NCBI GenBank assembly: GCA_958414825.1
Contig: CATYXQ010000001.1
Location: 6,401 to 70,400 of the forward strand
DNA from: an uncultured Eubacteriales bacterium
GTDB lineage: Bacteria > Bacillota > Clostridia > Oscillospirales > CAG-272
Length of the DNA: 64,000 bases
Reading direction: 5' to 3'
Shown: positions 1,963-51,472 of the stretch, one piece after another
Layout: every line of letters begins with the position of its first letter
Position numbering within the stretch: the stretch's first letter is position 1
The notes under the pieces: model-generated
The model's input: the letters and a program-made list of their open reading frames with translations, nothing else
The model's database searches: none
Told to the model about the DNA's origin: nothing
Made by a program: the position numbers and the translations under genes

Positions 1963-3131
1963 TGGAATACGGAAAGTTATTGTCTGAAAAGGTGCAGACT
2001 ATCAAACCATCGGGCATACGTAAATTCTTTGACATGCTGGGCGACCGTAAGGACGTCATTTCGCTGACCGTTGGACAGCCCGATTTTCCGACACCTTATC
2101 ATATTTCCAACGCCGCTGTGGAGTCGATTACGAAAAACAAAACCTACTATACCTCCAACAGCGGTCTGCTCGAACTTCGCGAAGGCATTTCCGCCTATCT
2201 TTCACGCCGTTTCGATCTCCATTACTGCGGCGCGGATGAAATCTTTGTTACGGTAGGCGGCAGCGAGGCCATTGATATGGCTTTTCGTTCTATTCTGAAT
2301 CCCGGCGACGAAGTTATCGTGCCCGAACCCTGCTTTGTCTGCTATGCGCCGCTGATTAAAATGATGGGCGGTGTTCCGGTACCGTTGTATACAAAGGTCG
2401 AAGATCGCTTCAAAATCACCCCCGAAAAGTTGCGTCCTCTGATTACAGAGCGAACAAAAGCGCTTGTGCTCTCCTATCCGAACAATCCGACCGGCGCCGT
2501 TATGACGCGCGCGGATTTGGAAGCGCTGCTTCCTGTACTCAAAACGCGCGACTTTTTTATCATCTCGGATGAAATCTACGCCGAACTGACCTATAACGCG
2601 CCGCACTGCTCTATCGCTTCGCTTGAAAACATGAAAGAGCGCACCATCATGATCAACGGTTTTTCCAAAGCCTATGCCATGACCGGCTGGCGGCTCGGGT
2701 ATATCGCAGCGCCTGCGCCGGTCATCAAGCAGATGCTCAAGCTTCATCAGTACGCGATCATGTGCGCCTCCACAGCCTCACAGTTTGCGGGAGTAGAGGC
2801 GATCAACCACGGAGATGAAGACATTCAGCGCATGAAAGAACAGTACAATTTTCGGCGTACATATGTCCTCAAGCGCCTGAGAAACATGGGGCTTGATTGC
2901 TTTGAACCAGAGGGAGCATTTTATGTTTTTCCCTGCATAGACGGATTCGGAATGACCAGCGACCAATTCTGTGAGCGTTTGATCGAAGAAAAAAAGATTG
3001 CCATTGTGCCGGGCAGCGCGTTCGGTTCAGGGAGCGAGGGCTTTGCCCGCATCTCTTACGCATACTCGATCGAGCATCTGGAAATCGCACTCGACCGGCT
3101 TGAAGAATTTGTAAAGGAGCACCGAGCATGA
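1962..3131 (+). CDS. Class I/II PLP-dependent aminotransferase (AspC/AlaT-like)
   Basis: 389 aa with the PLP-lysine motif SKAYAMTGWRLGY, plus NPTG and PDFPTP motifs. Pairing with an Lrp regulator resembles B. subtilis alaR-alaT. Confidence 0.9.
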   Translation: MEYGKLLSEKVQTIKPSGIRKFFDMLGDRKDVISLTVGQPDFPTPYHISNAAVESITKNKTYYTSNSGLLELREGISAYLSRRFDLHYCGADEIFVTVGGSEAIDMAFRSILNPGDEVIVPEPCFVCYAPLIKMMGGVPVPLYTKVEDRFKITPEKLRPLITERTKALVLSYPNNPTGAVMTRADLEALLPVLKTRDFFIISDEIYAELTYNAPHCSIASLENMKERTIMINGFSKAYAMTGWRLGYIAAPAPVIKQMLKLHQYAIMCASTASQFAGVEAINHGDEDIQRMKEQYNFRRTYVLKRLRNMGLDCFEPEGAFYVFPCIDGFGMTSDQFCERLIEEKKIAIVPGSAFGSGSEGFARISYAYSIEHLEIALDRLEEFVKEHRA

Positions 3132-3334
3132 CCCGGGAAAAAATCGACCGCATCAATTTTTTGGCCAGAAAAGCACGCGATACCGGGCTGACCGAAGCGG
3201 AAAAAGAAGAACAGGCCGATCTCCGCAGCGAATATATCGGCGAAATCCGCGTATCTTTCAGCAAAACGCTGGAACATACGGTCATCAAACGGCCGGACGG
3301 CAGCATCGAACCCCTGAAAAAGAAAAGAGACTGA
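3128..3334 (+). CDS. DUF896 (UPF0291, YnzC-like) small protein
   Basis: 68 aa. IDRINFLARKARDTGLTEAEKEEQADLRSEY matches my memory of the DUF896 family. There is an ATGA overlap with the aminotransferase stop. Confidence 0.7.
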   Translation: MTREKIDRINFLARKARDTGLTEAEKEEQADLRSEYIGEIRVSFSKTLEHTVIKRPDGSIEPLKKKRD

Positions 3335-3389: not shown

Positions 3390-5423
3390 ATGACGGATAG
3401 ATTAGACGGTTTGAGCATGGATATTGAGGCCGAGAACAAGGCGCGTTTACAGACCGTTTTCCCGGAGTGCTTCACCGAGGGCAAATTAGACATTGACAAG
3501 CTGCTTTCCCTTTGCGGCGAGTATATCACGGACGATTTTGAGAAATACGAATTCAAATGGAAAGGCAAAAGCGATTGCCTGCGGATGGCACAGCGGCGCA
3601 GTACGGCGACCCTGCGCCCCTGTCCGTCCGAGAGCGTGAATTTTGACACGACGCAAAACCTGTATATCGAGGGCGATAATTTAGAGGTTTTGAAGCTGCT
3701 GCAAAAATCCTATTTCCGCAAGGTGAAGATGATCTACATCGACCCGCCGTATAACACGGGAAACGATTTTGTGTATGAGGACGATTTTGCCGACCCCATG
3801 CGGCGGTATGTGGAGGTTACGCAGCAGACCACAAAGAGCAATCCCGAAACCATGGGACGGTATCACACCAACTGGCTGAACATGATGTACCCCCGCCTGC
3901 GGCTTGCGGCTAACCTTCTGCGGGACGACGGGGCTATTTTTATTTCTATTGATGATAACGAGATTGCAAATCTCCGAAAAGTATGTGATGAGGTTTTTGG
4001 AGAAGAAAATTTTATCGCTTGCCTGGTATATGACAAGAACAGAAAAAACGACGCAAAGTATTTTTCTGTTGGACATGAATACATGCTTGTCTATTTCAAA
4101 AGTGCGGCTACAATGAATGAGCGTGGCGTTATTTTGAGAATGACAAAAGAAGGCATAGACGAGGTAAAATCGGAGTTTGAGCGTCTGAGGGTAGAATACA
4201 ATAATGATTGGGAAAAAGTAAACAATGGATTAAAAAGCCTATACGCCTCATGGAGTAAAGATGACCCGCGTAAATCATTAGCACGTTTTACAAAGGTTGA
4301 CGAAAAAGGCCCCTACCGTGACGATGGAAATATTAGTTGGCCTGGTGGCGGAGGACCGCGTTATGACGTTATCCACCCCATCACTCATAAACTTTGCAAA
4401 GTCCCGTCAAGAGGATGGATCTATCCCAATCCGCAGAGAATGAAAGAAGAAATTGAGCGAGGGCGGGTTGTATTTGGACAAGATGAGACAACCACACCAC
4501 GAATAAGGACTAATCTTTTTGAGGCTGATAAAGAAGTTATGCGTAGTGTACATTTTAGCTATGCACAAATCGTGTCACAGACCTTTAATGCCATATTTAA
4601 TAACAAACGCATTTTTGAAAACCCCAAAAGTATAGATGATATTAAAAAACTCGTAGAATATATTACTGCAAAAAATGATGGCGACATCATTCTTGACTTT
4701 TTCTCCGGCTCTGCGACCACTGCCCACGCAGTCATGCAGCTTAACGCCGAGGACGGAGGCAACCGCCGTTTTATTATGGTGCAGCTGCCCGAAGTGTGCG
4801 ACGAGAAAAGCGAAGCATTTAAGGCGGGCTATTCCAACATTTGCGAGATCGGCAAAGAGCGCATACGGCGTGCTGGCGCACGCCTGAGTTTGGAGTGTGG
4901 AGTTAGGAGGGAGGAGTTAAACGAAAACAACTCCACACTTCACACTCCAACCCCCACACTGGACACAGGCTTTAAGGTATTCAAATTAGACACGTCCAAC
5001 ATGAAGCTGTGGGACGACGCCCCCATACCGGACGGCGACGTTGCGACGCTCTTTGAACGTATTGACGGACATATTGACGGATTGAAGCCTGACCGCAGCG
5101 ACGCAGATTTGATTTATGAAATCCTCTTGAAGATGGGCTATCCTTTAACCTGCCCGCTTACAGCGTTCAGGTTAAGTGTGGAGTGTGAAGTGTGGGGTGT
5201 GGAGTTGGAGAGCGATAAAACTCAAAACTCCACCCTCCAAACTCCAAACTATTCCATGCTCATTTGCTTGCAGGAGGGCGTCACCGCCGAGCATATCGAG
5301 CAAATGGCCGCCCTGTCCCCGCAAAAAATCGTCCTTGCCGGACGCGGCCTTGCGGACAGCAGCGCAAAGGCGAACGCCTTTTATCTGTTGGAAAACAGGG
5401 GGATTGAGTTGAAAACCATATGA
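3390..5423 (+). CDS. mod: Type III restriction-modification methyltransferase (Mod, N6-adenine, beta class)
   Basis: Motif IV is IYIDPPYNTGNDF and motif I is ILDFFSGSATTAHAV, in the order IV-TRD-I. RBS AAGGAGGAA at 3374-3382. The gene lies upstream of a Res helicase-nuclease. Confidence 0.9.
   Translation: MTDRLDGLSMDIEAENKARLQTVFPECFTEGKLDIDKLLSLCGEYITDDFEKYEFKWKGKSDCLRMAQRRSTATLRPCPSESVNFDTTQNLYIEGDNLEVLKLLQKSYFRKVKMIYIDPPYNTGNDFVYEDDFADPMRRYVEVTQQTTKSNPETMGRYHTNWLNMMYPRLRLAANLLRDDGAIFISIDDNEIANLRKVCDEVFGEENFIACLVYDKNRKNDAKYFSVGHEYMLVYFKSAATMNERGVILRMTKEGIDEVKSEFERLRVEYNNDWEKVNNGLKSLYASWSKDDPRKSLARFTKVDEKGPYRDDGNISWPGGGGPRYDVIHPITHKLCKVPSRGWIYPNPQRMKEEIERGRVVFGQDETTTPRIRTNLFEADKEVMRSVHFSYAQIVSQTFNAIFNNKRIFENPKSIDDIKKLVEYITAKNDGDIILDFFSGSATTAHAVMQLNAEDGGNRRFIMVQLPEVCDEKSEAFKAGYSNICEIGKERIRRAGARLSLECGVRREELNENNSTLHTPTPTLDTGFKVFKLDTSNMKLWDDAPIPDGDVATLFERIDGHIDGLKPDRSDADLIYEILLKMGYPLTCPLTAFRLSVECEVWGVELESDKTQNSTLQTPNYSMLICLQEGVTAEHIEQMAALSPQKIVLAGRGLADSSAKANAFYLLENRGIELKTI
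4888..4951 (+). repeat. Palindromic element copy 1 (G arm 4888-4904, C arm 4929-4951), in-frame inside mod
   Basis: GTTTGGAGTGTGGAGTT ... AACTCCACACTTCACACTCCAAC. The arms are reverse complements. It is translated as LECGV...NSTLHTP. Confidence 0.8.
5175..5250 (+). repeat. Palindromic element copy 2 (G arm 5175-5206, C arm 5226-5250), in-frame inside mod
   Basis: AGTGTGGAGTGTGAAGTGTGGGGTGTGGAGTT ... AACTCCACCCTCCAAACTCCAAACT. It is translated as VECEVWGVE...NSTLQTPN. Confidence 0.8.
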
Positions 5424-5454
5424 GTTTGGAGTGTTGAGAGTGGAGTGTGGAGTT
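5424..5454 (+). repeat. Palindromic element copy 3, left (G) arm, directly after the mod stop
   Basis: GTTTGGAGTGTTGAGAGTGGAGTGTGGAGTT. Its reverse-complement partner is at 5798-5821. Confidence 0.8.
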
Positions 5455-5455
5455 T

Positions 5456-5863
5456 ATGGAACAGGAAAAAACCATACGATACAAAAGTAAACTGTTCGCT
5501 GTTCGTATCGTGAAACTCTATCGGTATTTGTGCGAGGAAAAGAAAGAATTTGTTTTGTCCAAGCAGCTTTTACGAAGCGGAACAAGCATTGGCGCAAATA
5601 TCGCGGAAAGCGAATGTGCAATCAGCAGGAAAGACTTTTTAAGTAAAGTATATATTGCGCTGAAAGAATGTGCGGAAACACTTTATTGGTTAGAACTGCT
5701 TTTTGATACAGACTATCTGACCAAACGGGAGTATCTTTCCTTGAAAAATGATTGCGAGGAAATGAGAAAAATGATGTCGTCAACCACCAGAACCATGAAC
5801 TCCACACTCCACACTCCAAACTTGCGAACGAGGGAGGAACGACCGAGTGAAGCTAAAGTTTAA
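5456..5863 (+). CDS. Four-helix-bundle protein (23S rRNA intervening-sequence protein family, Avd-like)
   Basis: LSKQLLRSGTSIGANIAESECAISRKDFLSKVYIALKECAETLYWLELL is the family signature as I recall it. About 40% GC by eye, against about 57% in the flanks. ATG 5456 is preferred over the track's GTG 5447. The C-terminal tail is encoded by the right arm of the repeat. Confidence 0.85.
   Translation: MEQEKTIRYKSKLFAVRIVKLYRYLCEEKKEFVLSKQLLRSGTSIGANIAESECAISRKDFLSKVYIALKECAETLYWLELLFDTDYLTKREYLSLKNDCEEMRKMMSSTTRTMNSTLHTPNLRTREERPSEAKV
5798..5821 (+). repeat. Palindromic element copy 3, right (C) arm
   Basis: AACTCCACACTCCACACTCCAAAC is the reverse complement of the outer and inner parts of 5424-5454. 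Confidence 0.8.
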
Positions 5864-8800
5864 GCAGCAGGACTTCCAGACCGACGCGGTAAACGCAGTT
5901 TGCTCCCTCTTTGACGGTCAGAAACGGCAGACTTCCGCCTTCAGCATGGAGCAAAGCGGCGGGCAGATAGAACTGTTCGCAAGCGTGGGCATTTCAAATG
6001 CCCTCTGTATAGACGACAGACGCATCATCGAAAATATGCACATGGTGCAGAGAAAGAACGGGTTGCCGTTGACAGATCTGTACAGTGTGGGGGGTGAAGC
6101 TAAGAGTGAGGCGTTAAAAGAAAACGGCTCCACACTTCACACTCCAAATTCCAAACTACTGAAAACTGCCCCACAGTTTTCAGTGGAAATGGAAACCGGG
6201 ACGGGAAAAACCTATGTCTACACAAAAACCATTTACGAATTGAACCGCCTGTATGGGTTTACAAAATTTATCGTCGTCGTCCCCAGCGTGGCAATACGCG
6301 AGGGCGTCTATAAATCCTTGCAGACGACAGAAGAACACTTTTCCGCGCTCTATGACAACGCGCCTTGCCGCTATTTTATCTACAACAGCGCGAAGCTGTC
6401 CGACGTGCGGCAGTTTGCCACAAGCGCCAATATTGAAATTATGATTATCAATATCGACGCGTTCCGCAAAGCGGAAAACGTGATAAATCAACAGCAGGAC
6501 AAGCTGAACGGCGACGCGGCCATCAGCTTCATACAGGCCACCCGCCCGATCGTCATCATCGACGAGCCGCAGAGCGTAGATAATACCCAAAAGGCAAAAG
6601 ACGCGATTGCGTCCCTTGCGCCCCTTTGCGTGTTCCGATACTCCGCGACCCACCGGGAAAAAGTCAATCTGCTCTACCGCCTGACCCCCGTTGACGCTTA
6701 CCAAATGGGGCTTGTCAAGCAGATATGCGTATCGAGCAACCAATCGGCGGGCGGCTTTAACAAACCGTATATCAAGCTGCTTTCCGTTTCCAATGAGGAC
6801 GGATTTCGGGCGCGGCTTGAAATCGACGTTCAGGGAAAAGACGGAAAAGTGAGCCGCAGAGCCGTTACCGTCAAACAGGGCGCGGATCTGCACAAGCTGT
6901 CCGGCTGCCGCAGCTTGTATGAAAACTACGCCGTTTCGGGCATTGACTGTACGCCGGGAATGGAGCAGATAGAGCTATCCAATACCGACGTGGTACGGTT
7001 AGGACGCGCCATAGGCGACATAGACGAAAACCTTATCAAGCGTATGCAGATACGCCGGACGATTGAAGCGCATTTAGACAAAGAATTACGCTACACCGAA
7101 AAGGGTATCAAAGTTCTGTCCCTGTTCTTTATTGACGAAGTAAAAAAATACCGCGACCCGACGGGCGGCAAAGGCGTTTACGCGCGGATGTTCGAGGAAT
7201 TATACGCGGAATTGATTGCCCTGCCAAAGTATGCGGAATTACGCCGACGCTTTCCCGCCGACGCGCAGCGCGTCCATGACGGATATTTTTCGCAGGACAA
7301 AAAAGGCCGCTATAAGGACACCAGGGGCGACACGCAGGACGACGCCAGCACCTACAACACCATTATGAAAGATAAGGAATGGTTGCTCAGCTTTGACTGC
7401 CCCTTGCGCTTTATCTTCTCGCATTCCGCGTTAAAAGAAGGTTGGGACAATCCGAATGTCTTTCAAGTCTGTACGCTGATCGAGCAAAAAAGCACCTTGA
7501 CCGCAAGGCAAAAGGTAGGACGCGGCTTGCGTCTTTGCGTCAACCAGGACGGGGAACGTATCGAGGATAGAAATATCAATCTTTTGCACGTTATGGCAAA
7601 TGAAAGTTTTGCGGAGTTTGCCGACACGCTGCAAAAAGAGATTGAGGAAGAAACAGGGGTTAAGTTTGGTATTTTGCAGCTTGATCTGTTCAGCGGCATG
7701 GTTGTCCCGCAACAAGTTGAGGTAGTATGGAGTGTGGAACGTGAAGTGTGGAGTATTCCAACTGACGTTCAGGCGCAATTAACCTCCGAAGAAACCGAAA
7801 AGATAATTGCGCAAGCGGAAAAGGCACATTCAGCCGCTGATAACTCCACTCTCAACACTTCCTCCACACAGCGCGAAACCGTTACGGTTGAGCGTACACT
7901 GACCTACGACGACGCGCAGCGGCTTATGAGCCACTTTGAGAACAAGGGCTATATCACGAAATCCGGCAAAATCAAAGACAGCATGAAAAACGCCGTGCGG
8001 GACGGTACGCTTGACCTGCCCCCGAAATTTGAAACGGCGCGCTCACAGCTTATAGCCGCCATACGCAGAGCCGACGCAAAGCCGCCTGTCCGGGACGCTT
8101 CCCGCGACGTTACGGTGAGGCTGAAAAAGGAAGTTGCCGTTTCGCCGGAATTTTTGGCGTTATGGGACAAGATAAAGCAAAAAACCACATACCGCGTCCA
8201 GATAGACGAAGCCGAATTGATACGCCGGAGCGTCGCCGCCTTGCAAAGCATGGAGCCGATACCCAAAGCGCGGATCATTACGCAGACCGCAGATATTGGG
8301 ATCGACCGCCCCGGCGTAACCTACGCCGAGCGCAGCATTAAGACCGCCGACCTTGCGGACAGCTATTCTTCCCTGCCGAATATCCTTGCTATCCTTGACG
8401 AACAGACGTTGGCGCGCCGCAGCGTGATAGCGGAAATCCTGAAGCAAAGCGGCAGAGGACAGGACTTTTTGAATAATCCGCAGATGTTCATAGAAAGCGC
8501 CGCCGCGATTATCCGGGACGCTTGTTATTCCCTTGCTATCGACGGTATCAGCTATAAGAAGCTGTACGGCGCAGAATACTATGTGCAGGAGATTTTCGAC
8601 AGCGCGGAACTTATCGCAAATCTTGATCGAAACGCCGTAGCCGTAGACCACAGCGTATATGACTATATCGTTTATGACAGCGCGATAGAAAACCGCTTTG
8701 CCCTTGACCTTGACAACGACCCGGATGTAAAGATGTTTTTCAAATTGCCAAGCCGTTTCCAAGTAAACACGCCCATAGGCACATATAATCCCGACTGGGC

Positions 8801-8996
8801 GGTTTACGTTGACACGGACGGAATGAAAAAGCTGTATTTTATCCTTGAAACCAAGGGCAGCACAAACGAACTCGATTTACGCGGGCGCGAAAACTTGAAA
8901 ATCCGTTGCGGCAGAGCGCATTTCAAAGCCGTTGACAGCGGCGCGGAACTGCACACCGCAAGCAGATGGAAAGATTTTAAGGCGCGCAATATTTAA
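5847..8996 (+). CDS. res: Type III restriction enzyme Res subunit (SF2 helicase plus PD-ExK nuclease)
   Basis: Motif I is EMETGTGKTYVY and motif II is VIIDEPQS. The C-terminal nuclease is NPDWAVYV...ILETKG. GTG start, with AGGGAGGAA at 5831-5839. Confidence 0.9.
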   Translation: MKLKFKQQDFQTDAVNAVCSLFDGQKRQTSAFSMEQSGGQIELFASVGISNALCIDDRRIIENMHMVQRKNGLPLTDLYSVGGEAKSEALKENGSTLHTPNSKLLKTAPQFSVEMETGTGKTYVYTKTIYELNRLYGFTKFIVVVPSVAIREGVYKSLQTTEEHFSALYDNAPCRYFIYNSAKLSDVRQFATSANIEIMIINIDAFRKAENVINQQQDKLNGDAAISFIQATRPIVIIDEPQSVDNTQKAKDAIASLAPLCVFRYSATHREKVNLLYRLTPVDAYQMGLVKQICVSSNQSAGGFNKPYIKLLSVSNEDGFRARLEIDVQGKDGKVSRRAVTVKQGADLHKLSGCRSLYENYAVSGIDCTPGMEQIELSNTDVVRLGRAIGDIDENLIKRMQIRRTIEAHLDKELRYTEKGIKVLSLFFIDEVKKYRDPTGGKGVYARMFEELYAELIALPKYAELRRRFPADAQRVHDGYFSQDKKGRYKDTRGDTQDDASTYNTIMKDKEWLLSFDCPLRFIFSHSALKEGWDNPNVFQVCTLIEQKSTLTARQKVGRGLRLCVNQDGERIEDRNINLLHVMANESFAEFADTLQKEIEEETGVKFGILQLDLFSGMVVPQQVEVVWSVEREVWSIPTDVQAQLTSEETEKIIAQAEKAHSAADNSTLNTSSTQRETVTVERTLTYDDAQRLMSHFENKGYITKSGKIKDSMKNAVRDGTLDLPPKFETARSQLIAAIRRADAKPPVRDASRDVTVRLKKEVAVSPEFLALWDKIKQKTTYRVQIDEAELIRRSVAALQSMEPIPKARIITQTADIGIDRPGVTYAERSIKTADLADSYSSLPNILAILDEQTLARRSVIAEILKQSGRGQDFLNNPQMFIESAAAIIRDACYSLAIDGISYKKLYGAEYYVQEIFDSAELIANLDRNAVAVDHSVYDYIVYDSAIENRFALDLDNDPDVKMFFKLPSRFQVNTPIGTYNPDWAVYVDTDGMKKLYFILETKGSTNELDLRGRENLKIRCGRAHFKAVDSGAELHTASRWKDFKARNI
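6084..6157 (+). repeat. Palindromic element copy 4 (degenerate G arm 6084-6112, C arm 6126-6157), in-frame in res before helicase motif I
   Basis: The C arm GGCTCCACACTTCACACTCCAAATTCCAAACT shares 20 exact nt with copy 1. The left arm is only partly complementary. Confidence 0.65.
7728..7869 (+). repeat. Palindromic element copy 5 (G arm 7728-7757, C arm 7841-7869, loop about 83 nt), in-frame in res
   Basis: TGGAGTGTGGAACGTGAAGTGTGGAGTATT ... TAACTCCACTCTCAACACTTCCTCCACAC. Positions 7843-7859 are the exact reverse complement of 5430-5446. Confidence 0.75.
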
Positions 8997-50755: not shown

Positions 50756-51472
50756 TTATTTTTGTCCAAAAAGTTCAAGCGCCTGTCTGGCCGCGACTTG
50801 TTCTGCCGCGCGCTTGGTGCGCCCCTCGCCGGTGCCAATCACATTGCTGTTCAGCCGTGCTTCCACAGTGAAGCACTTATTGTGATCGGGACCGCGCTCG
50901 TCTACCACAAAGTACTCCAACACTTCCCCGCCGGCCTGCTGCACGAACTGCTGCAAAAGCGTTTTATAATCCCGCGCCGCGCCGCTGATTTCAAGCTTGG
51001 TAAGCTCAGCTTCAAGCAGAGGTACGAGAAACTTTGCGACCCTATTTTTGTCCATTCCGCAGTCAATAAAAATCGCTGCGAGCAGCGCCTCAAACGCATC
51101 CGCCAAAATAGACGGCCGCTCGCGTCCGCCGCCGAGTTCTTCGCCGTGGCCGAGGCAAAGATAAGCGCCGAGGCCGATCTTCCCCGCGAACACGCTAAGC
51201 GCCTTTTCGCAGACAATCTCAGCGCGCATCCGTGTCAATTCACCCTCTGGCTGTTCGGGAAACTTTAAAAACAGAAATTCACTTGCAACAATCGATAAAA
51301 CCGAATCTCCCAAAAATTCTAAGCGCTCGTTGCACTCCACATATGCGCCCTTGCTCTTCGCCTCGTTTGAATACGAAGAATGCGTCAGCGCCGTATCCAA
51401 CAGCGTGCGGTCATGAAACGCATAGCCAATGGCCGCTTCCAGCGCCGCTCTGTCCTTTCTCAGTCTCTGCAT
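50756..51472 (-). CDS. rnc: Ribonuclease III
   Basis: NERLEFLGDSVL signature and a C-terminal dsRBD. Confidence 0.95.
   Translation of the reverse strand: MQRLRKDRAALEAAIGYAFHDRTLLDTALTHSSYSNEAKSKGAYVECNERLEFLGDSVLSIVASEFLFLKFPEQPEGELTRMRAEIVCEKALSVFAGKIGLGAYLCLGHGEELGGGRERPSILADAFEALLAAIFIDCGMDKNRVAKFLVPLLEAELTKLEISGAARDYKTLLQQFVQQAGGEVLEYFVVDERGPDHNKCFTVEARLNSNVIGTGEGRTKRAAEQVAARQALELFGQK

Follow-up and report, generated by a model that had tools for sequence, protein, structure and literature searches.

A 64,000-nt stretch of contig CATYXQ010000001.1 from an uncultured Eubacteriales bacterium (hereafter the window) contains, on its plus strand, a type III restriction-modification (RM) operon in which a small gene encoding a four-helix-bundle (4HB) protein separates the methyltransferase from the endonuclease. 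Relatives suggest an origin among gut Clostridia, e.g. Eubacterium coprostanoligenes and Pseudoruminococcus. The methyltransferase gene, mod (3390-5423; PF01555, 4.5e-29; PADLOC MTase_III, 2.5e-191), terminates in a TGA codon at 5421-5423. The endonuclease gene, res (PF04851 and PF19778; PADLOC REase_III, 1014 bits), runs from a GTG at 5847 to 8996, with its Shine-Dalgarno sequence, GGGAGG, at 5832-5837. The products are those of a type III system, i.e. a Mod N6/N4 methyltransferase with DPPY and FxGxG motifs followed by a Res with a superfamily 2 helicase and a PD-(D/E)xK nuclease. Between them the 4HB gene (5456-5863, ATG start, 135 aa) is enclosed by two inverted arms, and its 3' end overlaps the start of res by 17 nt. 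Arm, gene, second arm and a short tail make up a unit of 5424 to about 5831, as delimited by comparison with an empty junction at two related loci (L233/L234). This region is probably an intervening sequence (IVS)-type cassette, that is, a promoterless PF05635 gene within inverted heptamer arrays, inserted at the mod/res junction.

A preliminary description of the window had placed the 4HB open reading frame (ORF) in the protein family first found in ribosomal RNA (rRNA) IVSs, and profile searches agree, with scores above both cut-offs: PF05635 at 3e-30 and 105 bits (cut-off 33.8), and TIGR02436 at 1.5e-32 and 112 bits (cut-off 24). By phmmer the protein matches PDB 2RLD (BT_0352) at 1.8e-35. 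An AlphaFold2 model with a predicted local distance difference test score (pLDDT) of 88 has helices at residues 7-27, 34-53, 58-84 and 90-118 and is disordered at 123-135; the last 20 or so codons, from about residue 115, are translated 3' arm and junction. In Foldseek the model superimposes on 2RLD at a template modelling (TM) score of 0.97 and 57% identity, followed by 2GSC (Xcc0516) at TM 0.76. The ratio of nonsynonymous to synonymous substitution (dN/dS) in the 4HB core is 0.06 against the related locus L020, with dS saturated in more distant pairs. Because purifying selection is this strong, the protein is, judged from its substitutions, made and needed by something. With 9,525 clusters at 50% identity matching at E <= 0.001 the family is a large one, and we know of no function for S23p/PF05635 proteins outside the Avd proteins of diversity-generating retroelements (DGRs).

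The Avd connection had been raised at the outset as membership of one family. A similar fold stands; the relationship is, by the model, distant and structural only. Foldseek aligns the 4HB model with Avd 4DWL at TM 0.83 (target-normalised) with E 0.07 and 14% identity, and also lists the DGR complex 8UBB. Both proteins belong to a four-helix-bundle fold in which pentamers are known (2RLD with five chains, 2GSC, Avd 4DWL). That the gene is the Avd of a DGR or of its remnant is nevertheless extremely unlikely. Identity to the non-DGR protein BT_0352 is 57% as against 14% to Avd, neither a reverse transcriptase nor a template/variable repeat pair was found near the locus, and a screen of the window for YxDD, a motif screen alone, gave three matches, 9-53 kb away in ORFs of 222-754 aa.

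Each arm is a tandem array of degenerate heptamers, (AGTGTGG)n at the 5' end and (CCACACT)n at the 3' end, a make-up that the preliminary description did not include. Its placement of them holds. The 5' arm (G arm, 5424-5459, plus strand) starts at the first base after the mod stop and consists of about 4.7 heptamers: AGTTTGG, AGTGTTG, AGAGTGG, AGTGTGG and AGTTT. It contains the 4HB start codon and, shortly 5' of it, the GGAG motifs at 5442-5445 and 5449-5452 that had been proposed as a ribosome-binding site. The 3' arm (C arm, 5793-5823, plus strand), a CCACACT series translated as NSTLHTPN, ends 24 nt before the res GTG and pairs with the G arm over 30 nt at 87%, or 24 nt at 92%. The motif GGAGTGTGGAGT, allowing at most one mismatch, occurs 11 times, always within 4892-7754, against an expectation of 0.11; none of 100 shuffles reached 11. 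The rest of the window, 58 kb, lacks the motif, and at a threshold of 18 or more of 21 positions repeated at lag 7 the 64 kb yields no further strong 7-nt periodicity. No promoter-like or terminator-like sites were found inside the cassette. The cargo had been described as AT-richer than its neighbours, about 40% guanine plus cytosine (GC) against 57%; a contrast exists but is smaller, with the 4HB core at 38.7% and the cassette at 40.7% compared with 47.4% for mod and 51.2% for res. Within mod itself the 3' third is at 53% and the target-recognition domain (TRD) at 40%.

The same architecture recurs across the gene family. Relatives were taken from a metagenome scan that gave 80 loci at 50-78% identity, 61 of them with a usable ORF. 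Inverted repeats bracket 52 of the 61 (85%) as compared with 0.9% of 214 control genes in the same loci, so the flanking repeats of the window gene are not a coincidence. Identity at lag 7 is 0.51 upstream and 0.44 downstream of the relatives, against 0.29 and 0.30 for controls. At least 16 heptamer classes occur across the loci, e.g. AGGAGTT, AGAGTTT, AATTGAC, AGTGAAT and ATGAGGT, and in 43 of 46 loci the consensus heptamers of the 5' and 3' arms are reverse complements of each other, as against 10.7% between loci. Arms have a median length of 30.5 nt (4-5 heptamers). In 42 of 52 cassettes G is abundant and C scarce in the 5' arm, which fits its supplying the ribosome-binding site. The upstream neighbour is co-oriented with the 4HB gene at 51 of 55 loci; median gaps are 42 nt from the upstream stop to the 4HB ATG and 28 nt from the 4HB stop to the next start, with several 4-nt overlaps. 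Neighbours are diverse, 145 Pfam families among 104 proteins, and type III and type I RM genes are the commonest. At three loci (L015/L018/L019, about 2900-3330) the defence island has a second, shorter 4HB gene (116 aa), which lies between the genes for an SNF2 helicase and DUF4391 within AT-richer heptamer arms (AGGAGTT/AGGAATT); one operon can therefore carry two cassettes. At L163 (1746-2445) a 4HB cassette abuts a transfer-messenger RNA (tmRNA) gene on its upstream side (RF00023, 146 bits). Carriage by phages was considered and discarded, as only 6 relatives were found among 2.9 million viral contigs.

Comparison of mod-res operons with and without the cassette, as had been proposed, gives an empty site. 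At L233/L234, whose Res is 79% identical to that of the window, res follows mod directly through the junction ...ATATGA/GGGAGGGCGCGTT/TTGAAGCTAAAA, i.e. TGA/GGGAGGGCGCGTT/TTG, and the res Shine-Dalgarno sequence is present there as well. The corresponding window sequence is ...ATATGA/GTTTGGAGTG...CTCCAAACTTGCGAACGA/GGGAGGAACGACCGA/GTGAAGCTAAAG. The cassette has thus entered the interval that separates the stop codon of mod from the Shine-Dalgarno sequence of res. At L228 the same junction holds a different 4HB cassette, with arms AGAGTGT/ACACTCT where the window has GGAGTGT/ACACTCC, a compensatory change on both arms. Heptamer arms differ among loci with similar operons, which bears on the idea that the heptamers are the recognition site of Mod. 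The 4HB phylogeny is incongruent with that of Res: identities to the window for 4HB core and Res are 93% and 87% at L020, 55% and 66% at L228, and 80% and 35% at L010. Since the two do not track each other, the cassette has been exchanged or acquired independently of the operon. Other mod-res junctions hold different cargo in which heptamer arms are missing, namely a 204-aa ORF with no Pfam match at L231/L232 (3383-3997) and a 183-aa Zn-ribbon (Top1-type) protein at L230 of Desulfovibrio falkowii (3453-4004).

The comparison with rRNA is direct in two relatives. ORF-bearing 23S rRNA IVSs with S23p/PF05635 genes were reportedly described in Leptospira by Ralph and McClelland in 1993. At L187 and L215, whose 4HB proteins are 56% and 61% identical to that of the window, the cassette lies inside a 23S rRNA gene on the sense strand, and its arms are likewise built of heptamers. 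Alignment of L215 places the insert in the hairpin loop between ...CCGAAGC and GGUAGGGGAGCGU, which is helix 45, and BLAST gives the same break point for L187. The suggestion of an IVS-like cassette outside rRNA is supported, among other things, by this shared strand and architecture. In the helix-45 IVS of Coxiella, GACAGAT heptamers of strain-dependent copy number lie upstream of the S23p ORF and RNase III cuts at the first heptamer repeat (PMC4990558). Window cassette and rRNA IVS thus have in common the protein family, a sense-strand ORF, terminal inverted repeats able to form a long stem, a ribosome-binding site within that stem and, for Coxiella, a 5' arm of tandem heptamers whose number varies between strains. 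They differ in that the window host is an mRNA, at a type III RM junction, rather than an rRNA helix (9, 25 or 45), and in that the window ORF has its end fitted to the start of the next gene. Taken together, the sequence comparisons suggest one widespread class of cassettes, found in 23S rRNA genes and, more often, at operon junctions.

Four shorter copies inside mod and res had been pointed out, and repeat comparison confirmed them and their coordinates, two in each gene, all on the plus strand and all translated in frame (...SVECGVW.../...NSTLHTPN...). In mod, S1 (4887-4960, translated SLECGVRREELNENNSTLHTPTPTL) lies in a variable linker and folds at -28.8 kcal/mol (z -2.3), and S2 (5174-5251, translated LSVECEVWGVELESDKTQNSTLQTPN) folds at -31.3 kcal/mol (z -4.0). 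In res, S3 (6084-6158) sits just before the Walker A motif (-23 kcal/mol, z -1.7). In S4 (7722-7867; -41.6 kcal/mol, z -2.2), which lies in a region divergent from relatives, some 80 nt of coding sequence separate the arms (7722-7754 and 7837-7867); in the compact ORF-less hairpins the loop measures only some 8-12 nt. Over 74 nt that take in the loops, S1 and S3 have 80% identity and so are copies of one unit rather than independent inventions. All four are absent from L020, L021 and L026 (Res about 87%, Mod 65-68% identical); against L020/L026, S3 amounts to some 81 inserted nt (27 codons). Of the 120 nearest Res proteins, none but the window's, P0122 (83%, a degenerate copy) and P0192 (63%) has an element at the S3 site, and the distant Mod proteins of L012 and L015 also hold heptamer hairpins in the S1 linker. 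Arm sequence and polarity common to hairpins and cassette, together with presence and absence among related mod and res genes, support the proposed link, i.e. that the four are ORF-less relatives of the cassette. What would make them tolerable is that the consensus heptamer can be read through in all frames of both strands without meeting a stop, and that they lie in variable loops or linkers. The likeness to a miniature inverted-repeat transposable element (MITE) and its parent transposon, also raised at first, holds for the ORF-less copies with the same inverted repeats and fails for target-site duplication and transposase, neither of which was found. No Rfam family matched the hairpins (window and 12 loci carrying the motif), and the window gave no tRNA, rRNA or other Rfam match. 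Partnerless G-type heptamer arrays, translated in DUF4391 and Mod proteins, occur at L012 (3791-3846), L014 (2061-2111) and L015 (3717-3781 and 4368-4425); the peptide of the DUF4391 array, SLECGVW.EEL, stands at the same position in three diverged loci.

Further information can be gathered from strains of the same species. Six of these (L235-L240) have the operon at the same chromosomal site, with flanks 99-100% identical, and differ from the window in four places: the TRD of mod, the 3' arm, S4 and S1. S4 differs from L235 by a 3-nt indel and S1 by a cluster of 6 substitutions. The mod centre (about 3990-4700, GC 40%) is replaced by unrelated sequence in L235-L238 between those near-identical flanks, which looks like a TRD swap and hence a different methylation specificity. 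The 3' arm of the L235-type strains has exactly one heptamer more than that of the window, next to 4HB cores that are 100% identical; the cassette is thereby shown to be unstable in heptamer number. With the longer arm the 4HB protein has 133 aa and its stop overlaps the res start as GTGA, as compared with 135 aa and an end 17 nt inside res in the window.

Type III systems are classic phase-variable loci. The heptamer tract could accordingly be viewed as a contingency switch that acts on res through its coupling to the 4HB gene: seven is not a multiple of three, so that gain or loss of a C-arm heptamer shifts the 4HB end relative to the res start, and the two strain forms differ in exactly this way. 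The third phase, read from the sequence, would fuse 4HB in frame to Res. From window positions 5797-5863, one fewer or two more C-arm heptamers would bring the 4HB frame into the res frame with no stop between (7 mod 3 = 1), giving a 4HB-Res fusion. Heptamer number also varies in the Coxiella IVS (PMC4990558). We nevertheless regard such a switch as improbable. Slippage should be slow in repeats as degenerate as these; of the three states two were observed, and a fusion allele was not among them; in many relatives translation of 4HB stops before the C arm, so that the tract cannot act in this way; and the same arms are present where no downstream gene is coupled. Loci L150-L156 were considered as fusions and ruled out, since a TAA precedes their C arm. 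In these loci the 5' arm, in the 75 nt upstream of the 4HB ATG, is a 21-nt higher-order repeat (AGTTATG, AGAGTTG and AGAGTGG, three times), much longer than its 3' partner, and heptamer order varies among samples whose cassettes are otherwise near-identical.

At the RNA level, the minimum free energy fold is predicted to pair the arms (-126.5 kcal/mol, z -4.8) as 13 + 18 bp, with a 7-nt bulge at the heptamer missing from the window strain, and to enclose the 4HB GGAG motifs and ATG. In the mechanism we propose for an IVS-type cassette, the element would be transcribed within the mod-4HB-res message, riding on operon transcription, and in RNA its arms are predicted to form a stem of about 31 bp over the 4HB ribosome-binding site and start. 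Ribosomes finishing mod at the foot of the stem would help to open it, and translation of 4HB through the C arm would open it further and hand ribosomes on to res. Since the 4HB frame continues across the C arm as far as the res start or slightly beyond it, the insertion should not be polar. The stem is also a plausible RNase III substrate by analogy with rRNA; a cut would leave separate mod and res messages and a 4HB RNA lacking its ribosome-binding site, so that 4HB would be silenced. A part in setting the mod:res ratio, hinted at in the preliminary description, is conjectural to the same degree. Excision by RNase III with no religation is a feature of rRNA IVSs, where the window offers, at the level of sequence, an rnc gene and a stem of more than 22 bp. 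The rnc gene reported earlier at 50756-51472 is real (PF14622 at 7.6e-37, PF00636, dsrm); it lies on the minus strand and outside the element. Arm complementarity and the 7-nt period would probably be kept by DNA slippage and copying between arms.

That emphasis on DNA can be taken further. In an alternative explanation the arms are DNA-level by-products, insertion footprints or terminal repeats, and the stem in RNA is a side effect that translation neutralises. The non-Watson-Crick positions of 55 distinct stems comprise 43 G:U, 59 A:C and 145 other pairs. There being no G:U excess, complementarity is not visibly maintained by selection on the sense-strand RNA, and it may be kept at the DNA level. 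Heptamer arrangement is hypervariable among near-identical cassettes, polymorphism is concentrated in the repeats, and heptamer repeats elsewhere in bacteria are over-represented and form convergent pairs (PMC4692102). Against this, the G arm is 34/34 identical at L020 where the adjoining ORF differs at 38% of synonymous sites (pS 0.38), so that the arm sequence is constrained or homogenised. In addition, the ribosome-binding site and start codon are invariably enclosed by the arms, which start directly behind the upstream stop, and the same stems are demonstrably processed in rRNA (PMC4990558). On balance arms of this purely incidental kind are unlikely.

Somewhat less likely still is a working role for the 4HB protein in this family of type III systems and in other defence systems, as accessory or regulator, with arms that control its own expression. 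It might, for instance, govern the activity of Res or its ratio to Mod, or detect foreign nucleic acid. The order mod-4HB-res is kept where Mod and Res are only 35-40% identical, RM genes are the commonest neighbours, some islands have the second 4HB gene between SNF2 helicase and DUF4391, and the 4HB core is under the purifying selection given above. In addition, 18 family members have been recorded in cas loci (PMC3936711). Most relatives, however, reside in unrelated housekeeping operons and others in 23S rRNA or beside tmRNA; a Res at 79% identity works from the cassette-free operon; 4HB similarity does not follow Res similarity; and PADLOC has no model for the family. These sequence comparisons suggest that cassettes of this class behave like a selfish, horizontally exchanged module and not like a dedicated RM subunit.

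Surroundings of the operon bear on a further possibility, that the inverted repeats are sites for a DNA invertase and that flipping of the cassette would turn res off. Inverted repeats within an RM operon are reminiscent of type I hsdS invertons (PMC7672463). Gene order near the locus is MutS-like, aminotransferase, DUF896, mod, res, BioY, BirA; the operon is thus flanked by housekeeping genes, DUF896 upstream and BioY and BirA downstream, and no recombinase adjoins it in the window. One gene orientation was seen at all mod-4HB-res loci, relatives are co-oriented with the upstream gene as described, and the loops of the compact hairpins are very short. Inversion is therefore very unlikely. In related operons TnpV-like genes stand downstream of res (L010-L019) or a large serine recombinase upstream of mod (L020-L023), a pattern suggesting that Tn4451-like or integrative elements carry the entire RM operon in other genomes; neither neighbour accompanies the window copy. 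Directly upstream of the related type III operon at L231/L232 (1-1442) are genes for a prokaryotic Argonaute (pAgo, Piwi) and SIR2, which marks a defence island.

Several observations weigh against reading the window region as an inserted, IVS-type cassette. No target-site duplication is visible when occupied and empty sites are compared, no movement of the cassette was observed directly, and no transposase, recombinase or reverse transcriptase was found at the locus, the sole gene of the cassette being 4HB. Only one cassette is present in 64 kb and the hairpins are confined to the RM operon, unlike a genome-wide MITE. The stems have no wobble signature, as counted above. The Coxiella S23p ORF is reported to be decaying and probably untranslated, in contrast to the dN/dS of the window gene. 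Lastly, mod-4HB-res is kept across very divergent operons and RM and cas loci are recurrent hosts, which leaves room for a defence-related function.

Heptamer arrays extend well beyond the gene family. The motif TGGAGTGTGRAGTGTGGRG was found in at least 120 contigs from Planctomycetota, Chloroflexota, Bacteroidota, Clostridia, Proteobacteria, Actinomycetota, Cyanobacteria and Endomicrobia. In the examples read it is mostly intergenic, often just 3' of stop codons, an impression rather than a tally. Among the matches listed, only 5 of 120 have a 4HB gene of the subfamily within 8 kb. Where a partner arm is present, the order is G arm then C arm in 35 of 35 loci, and what lies between the arms is a 4HB gene, a different small ORF, a yacG-like gene or a set of long nested palindromes. 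In Clostridia (L110 at about 4585-4900, L089 at about 823-1150, L077, L115, L034 and L119) GGAGTGT-type arms enclose noncoding inserts of 200-450 nt made of several nested long palindromes, e.g. CCGTAGGGG...CCCCTACGG; these could be a structured RNA or a family of nested-hairpin elements, and they had no Rfam match in the loci tested. At L092 of Phycisphaerales (1620-2300) a yacG-like zinc-finger gene lies inside near-perfect inverted repeats of about 70 nt that hold GGAGTGT, with further heptamer arrays (ATTCTCA, GGAAAAT) inside the repeats.

Known repeat families can be compared with these arms. Short tandemly repeated repetitive (STRR) sequences of cyanobacteria are a heptamer repeat family, and ORF-less rRNA IVS hairpins occur in Salmonella, Yersinia and Campylobacter. 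Heptamer repeats are over-represented in bacteria generally, with Xanthomonas GGGAATC forming convergent pairs (PMC4692102), and TAACTGA repeats occur in Beggiatoaceae, Cyanobacteria and Bacteroidetes (PMC4679880). Like the window arms, known heptamer families consist of tandem 7-nt units, mostly intergenic by gene ends and often in convergent pairs, whose length varies between close relatives; here, by contrast, the arrays bracket one specific gene family, and the searched text of PMC4692102 and PMC4679880 makes no mention of S23/PF05635 genes. ORF-less IVS hairpins and Rickettsia palindromic elements (RPE) resemble the window hairpins as short gene-less palindromic insertions, and RPE, like S1-S4, lie in frame inside coding genes and are translated. 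The window hairpins differ from both in having arms that are heptamer arrays common to a neighbouring ORF-carrying cassette, and in being confined to the RM operon in the 64 kb rather than dispersed.

MITEs have inverted-repeat ends and small ORF-less derivatives, as here, and an integron cassette is likewise a promoterless gene oriented with host transcription. The window differs from MITEs, repetitive extragenic palindromes (REP), bacterial interspersed mosaic elements (BIME) and integrons in that no target-site duplication, transposase, REP-associated tyrosine transposase (RAYT) or integrase was found, and from integron cassettes and the like in that its gene lies inside the hairpin and not beside it. 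Its polarity, G arm then C arm, is opposite to that of attC (RYYYAAC ... GTTRRRY). Arm polarity and the missing integrase led us to reject an attC/integron cassette, the missing RAYT to reject REP/RAYT, and the absence of the motif from the other 58 kb to reject a genome-wide MITE. The DGR Avd genes share the four-helix-bundle fold with the window gene, which has near it neither a reverse transcriptase nor template and variable repeats.

Beyond the cassette at this locus, a broader reading is offered tentatively, as possible rather than probable: PF05635 cassettes bracketed by heptamers would be one widespread class of mobile element for which the literature searched holds no description, 23S rRNA IVSs would be merely one of its landing sites, a pentameric 4HB protein would recognise the arms and drive or protect their copying, and ORF-less hairpins, including the translated ones in mod and res and perhaps some heptamer families, would be non-autonomous derivatives. 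Binding of the protein to the 7-nt-periodic arms, as a pentamer on 4-5 heptamers, is a guess. Nothing relevant to the arm sequence was found in the literature, and the literature found for PF05635 was DGR work only. Covarying inverted heptamer brackets, placement at operon junctions and in helix 45, and translated ORF-less copies in defence genes were not found together in the literature searched.

The origin and purpose of rRNA IVSs and their S23p ORF have been in question since about 1990. To this the locus adds an IVS-type cassette with heptamer arms at an mRNA operon junction together with an empty site for comparison, arms that vary by whole heptamers between strains, and ORF-less copies inside genes, i.e. 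palindromic elements being translated within defence enzymes. For annotation, the 4HB gene should not be read as an RM subunit. Among the heptamer repeat families, some may belong to cassettes of this kind. The question of what an IVS is thereby becomes tractable, through protein binding, RNase III cutting in mRNA and the copying of arms.

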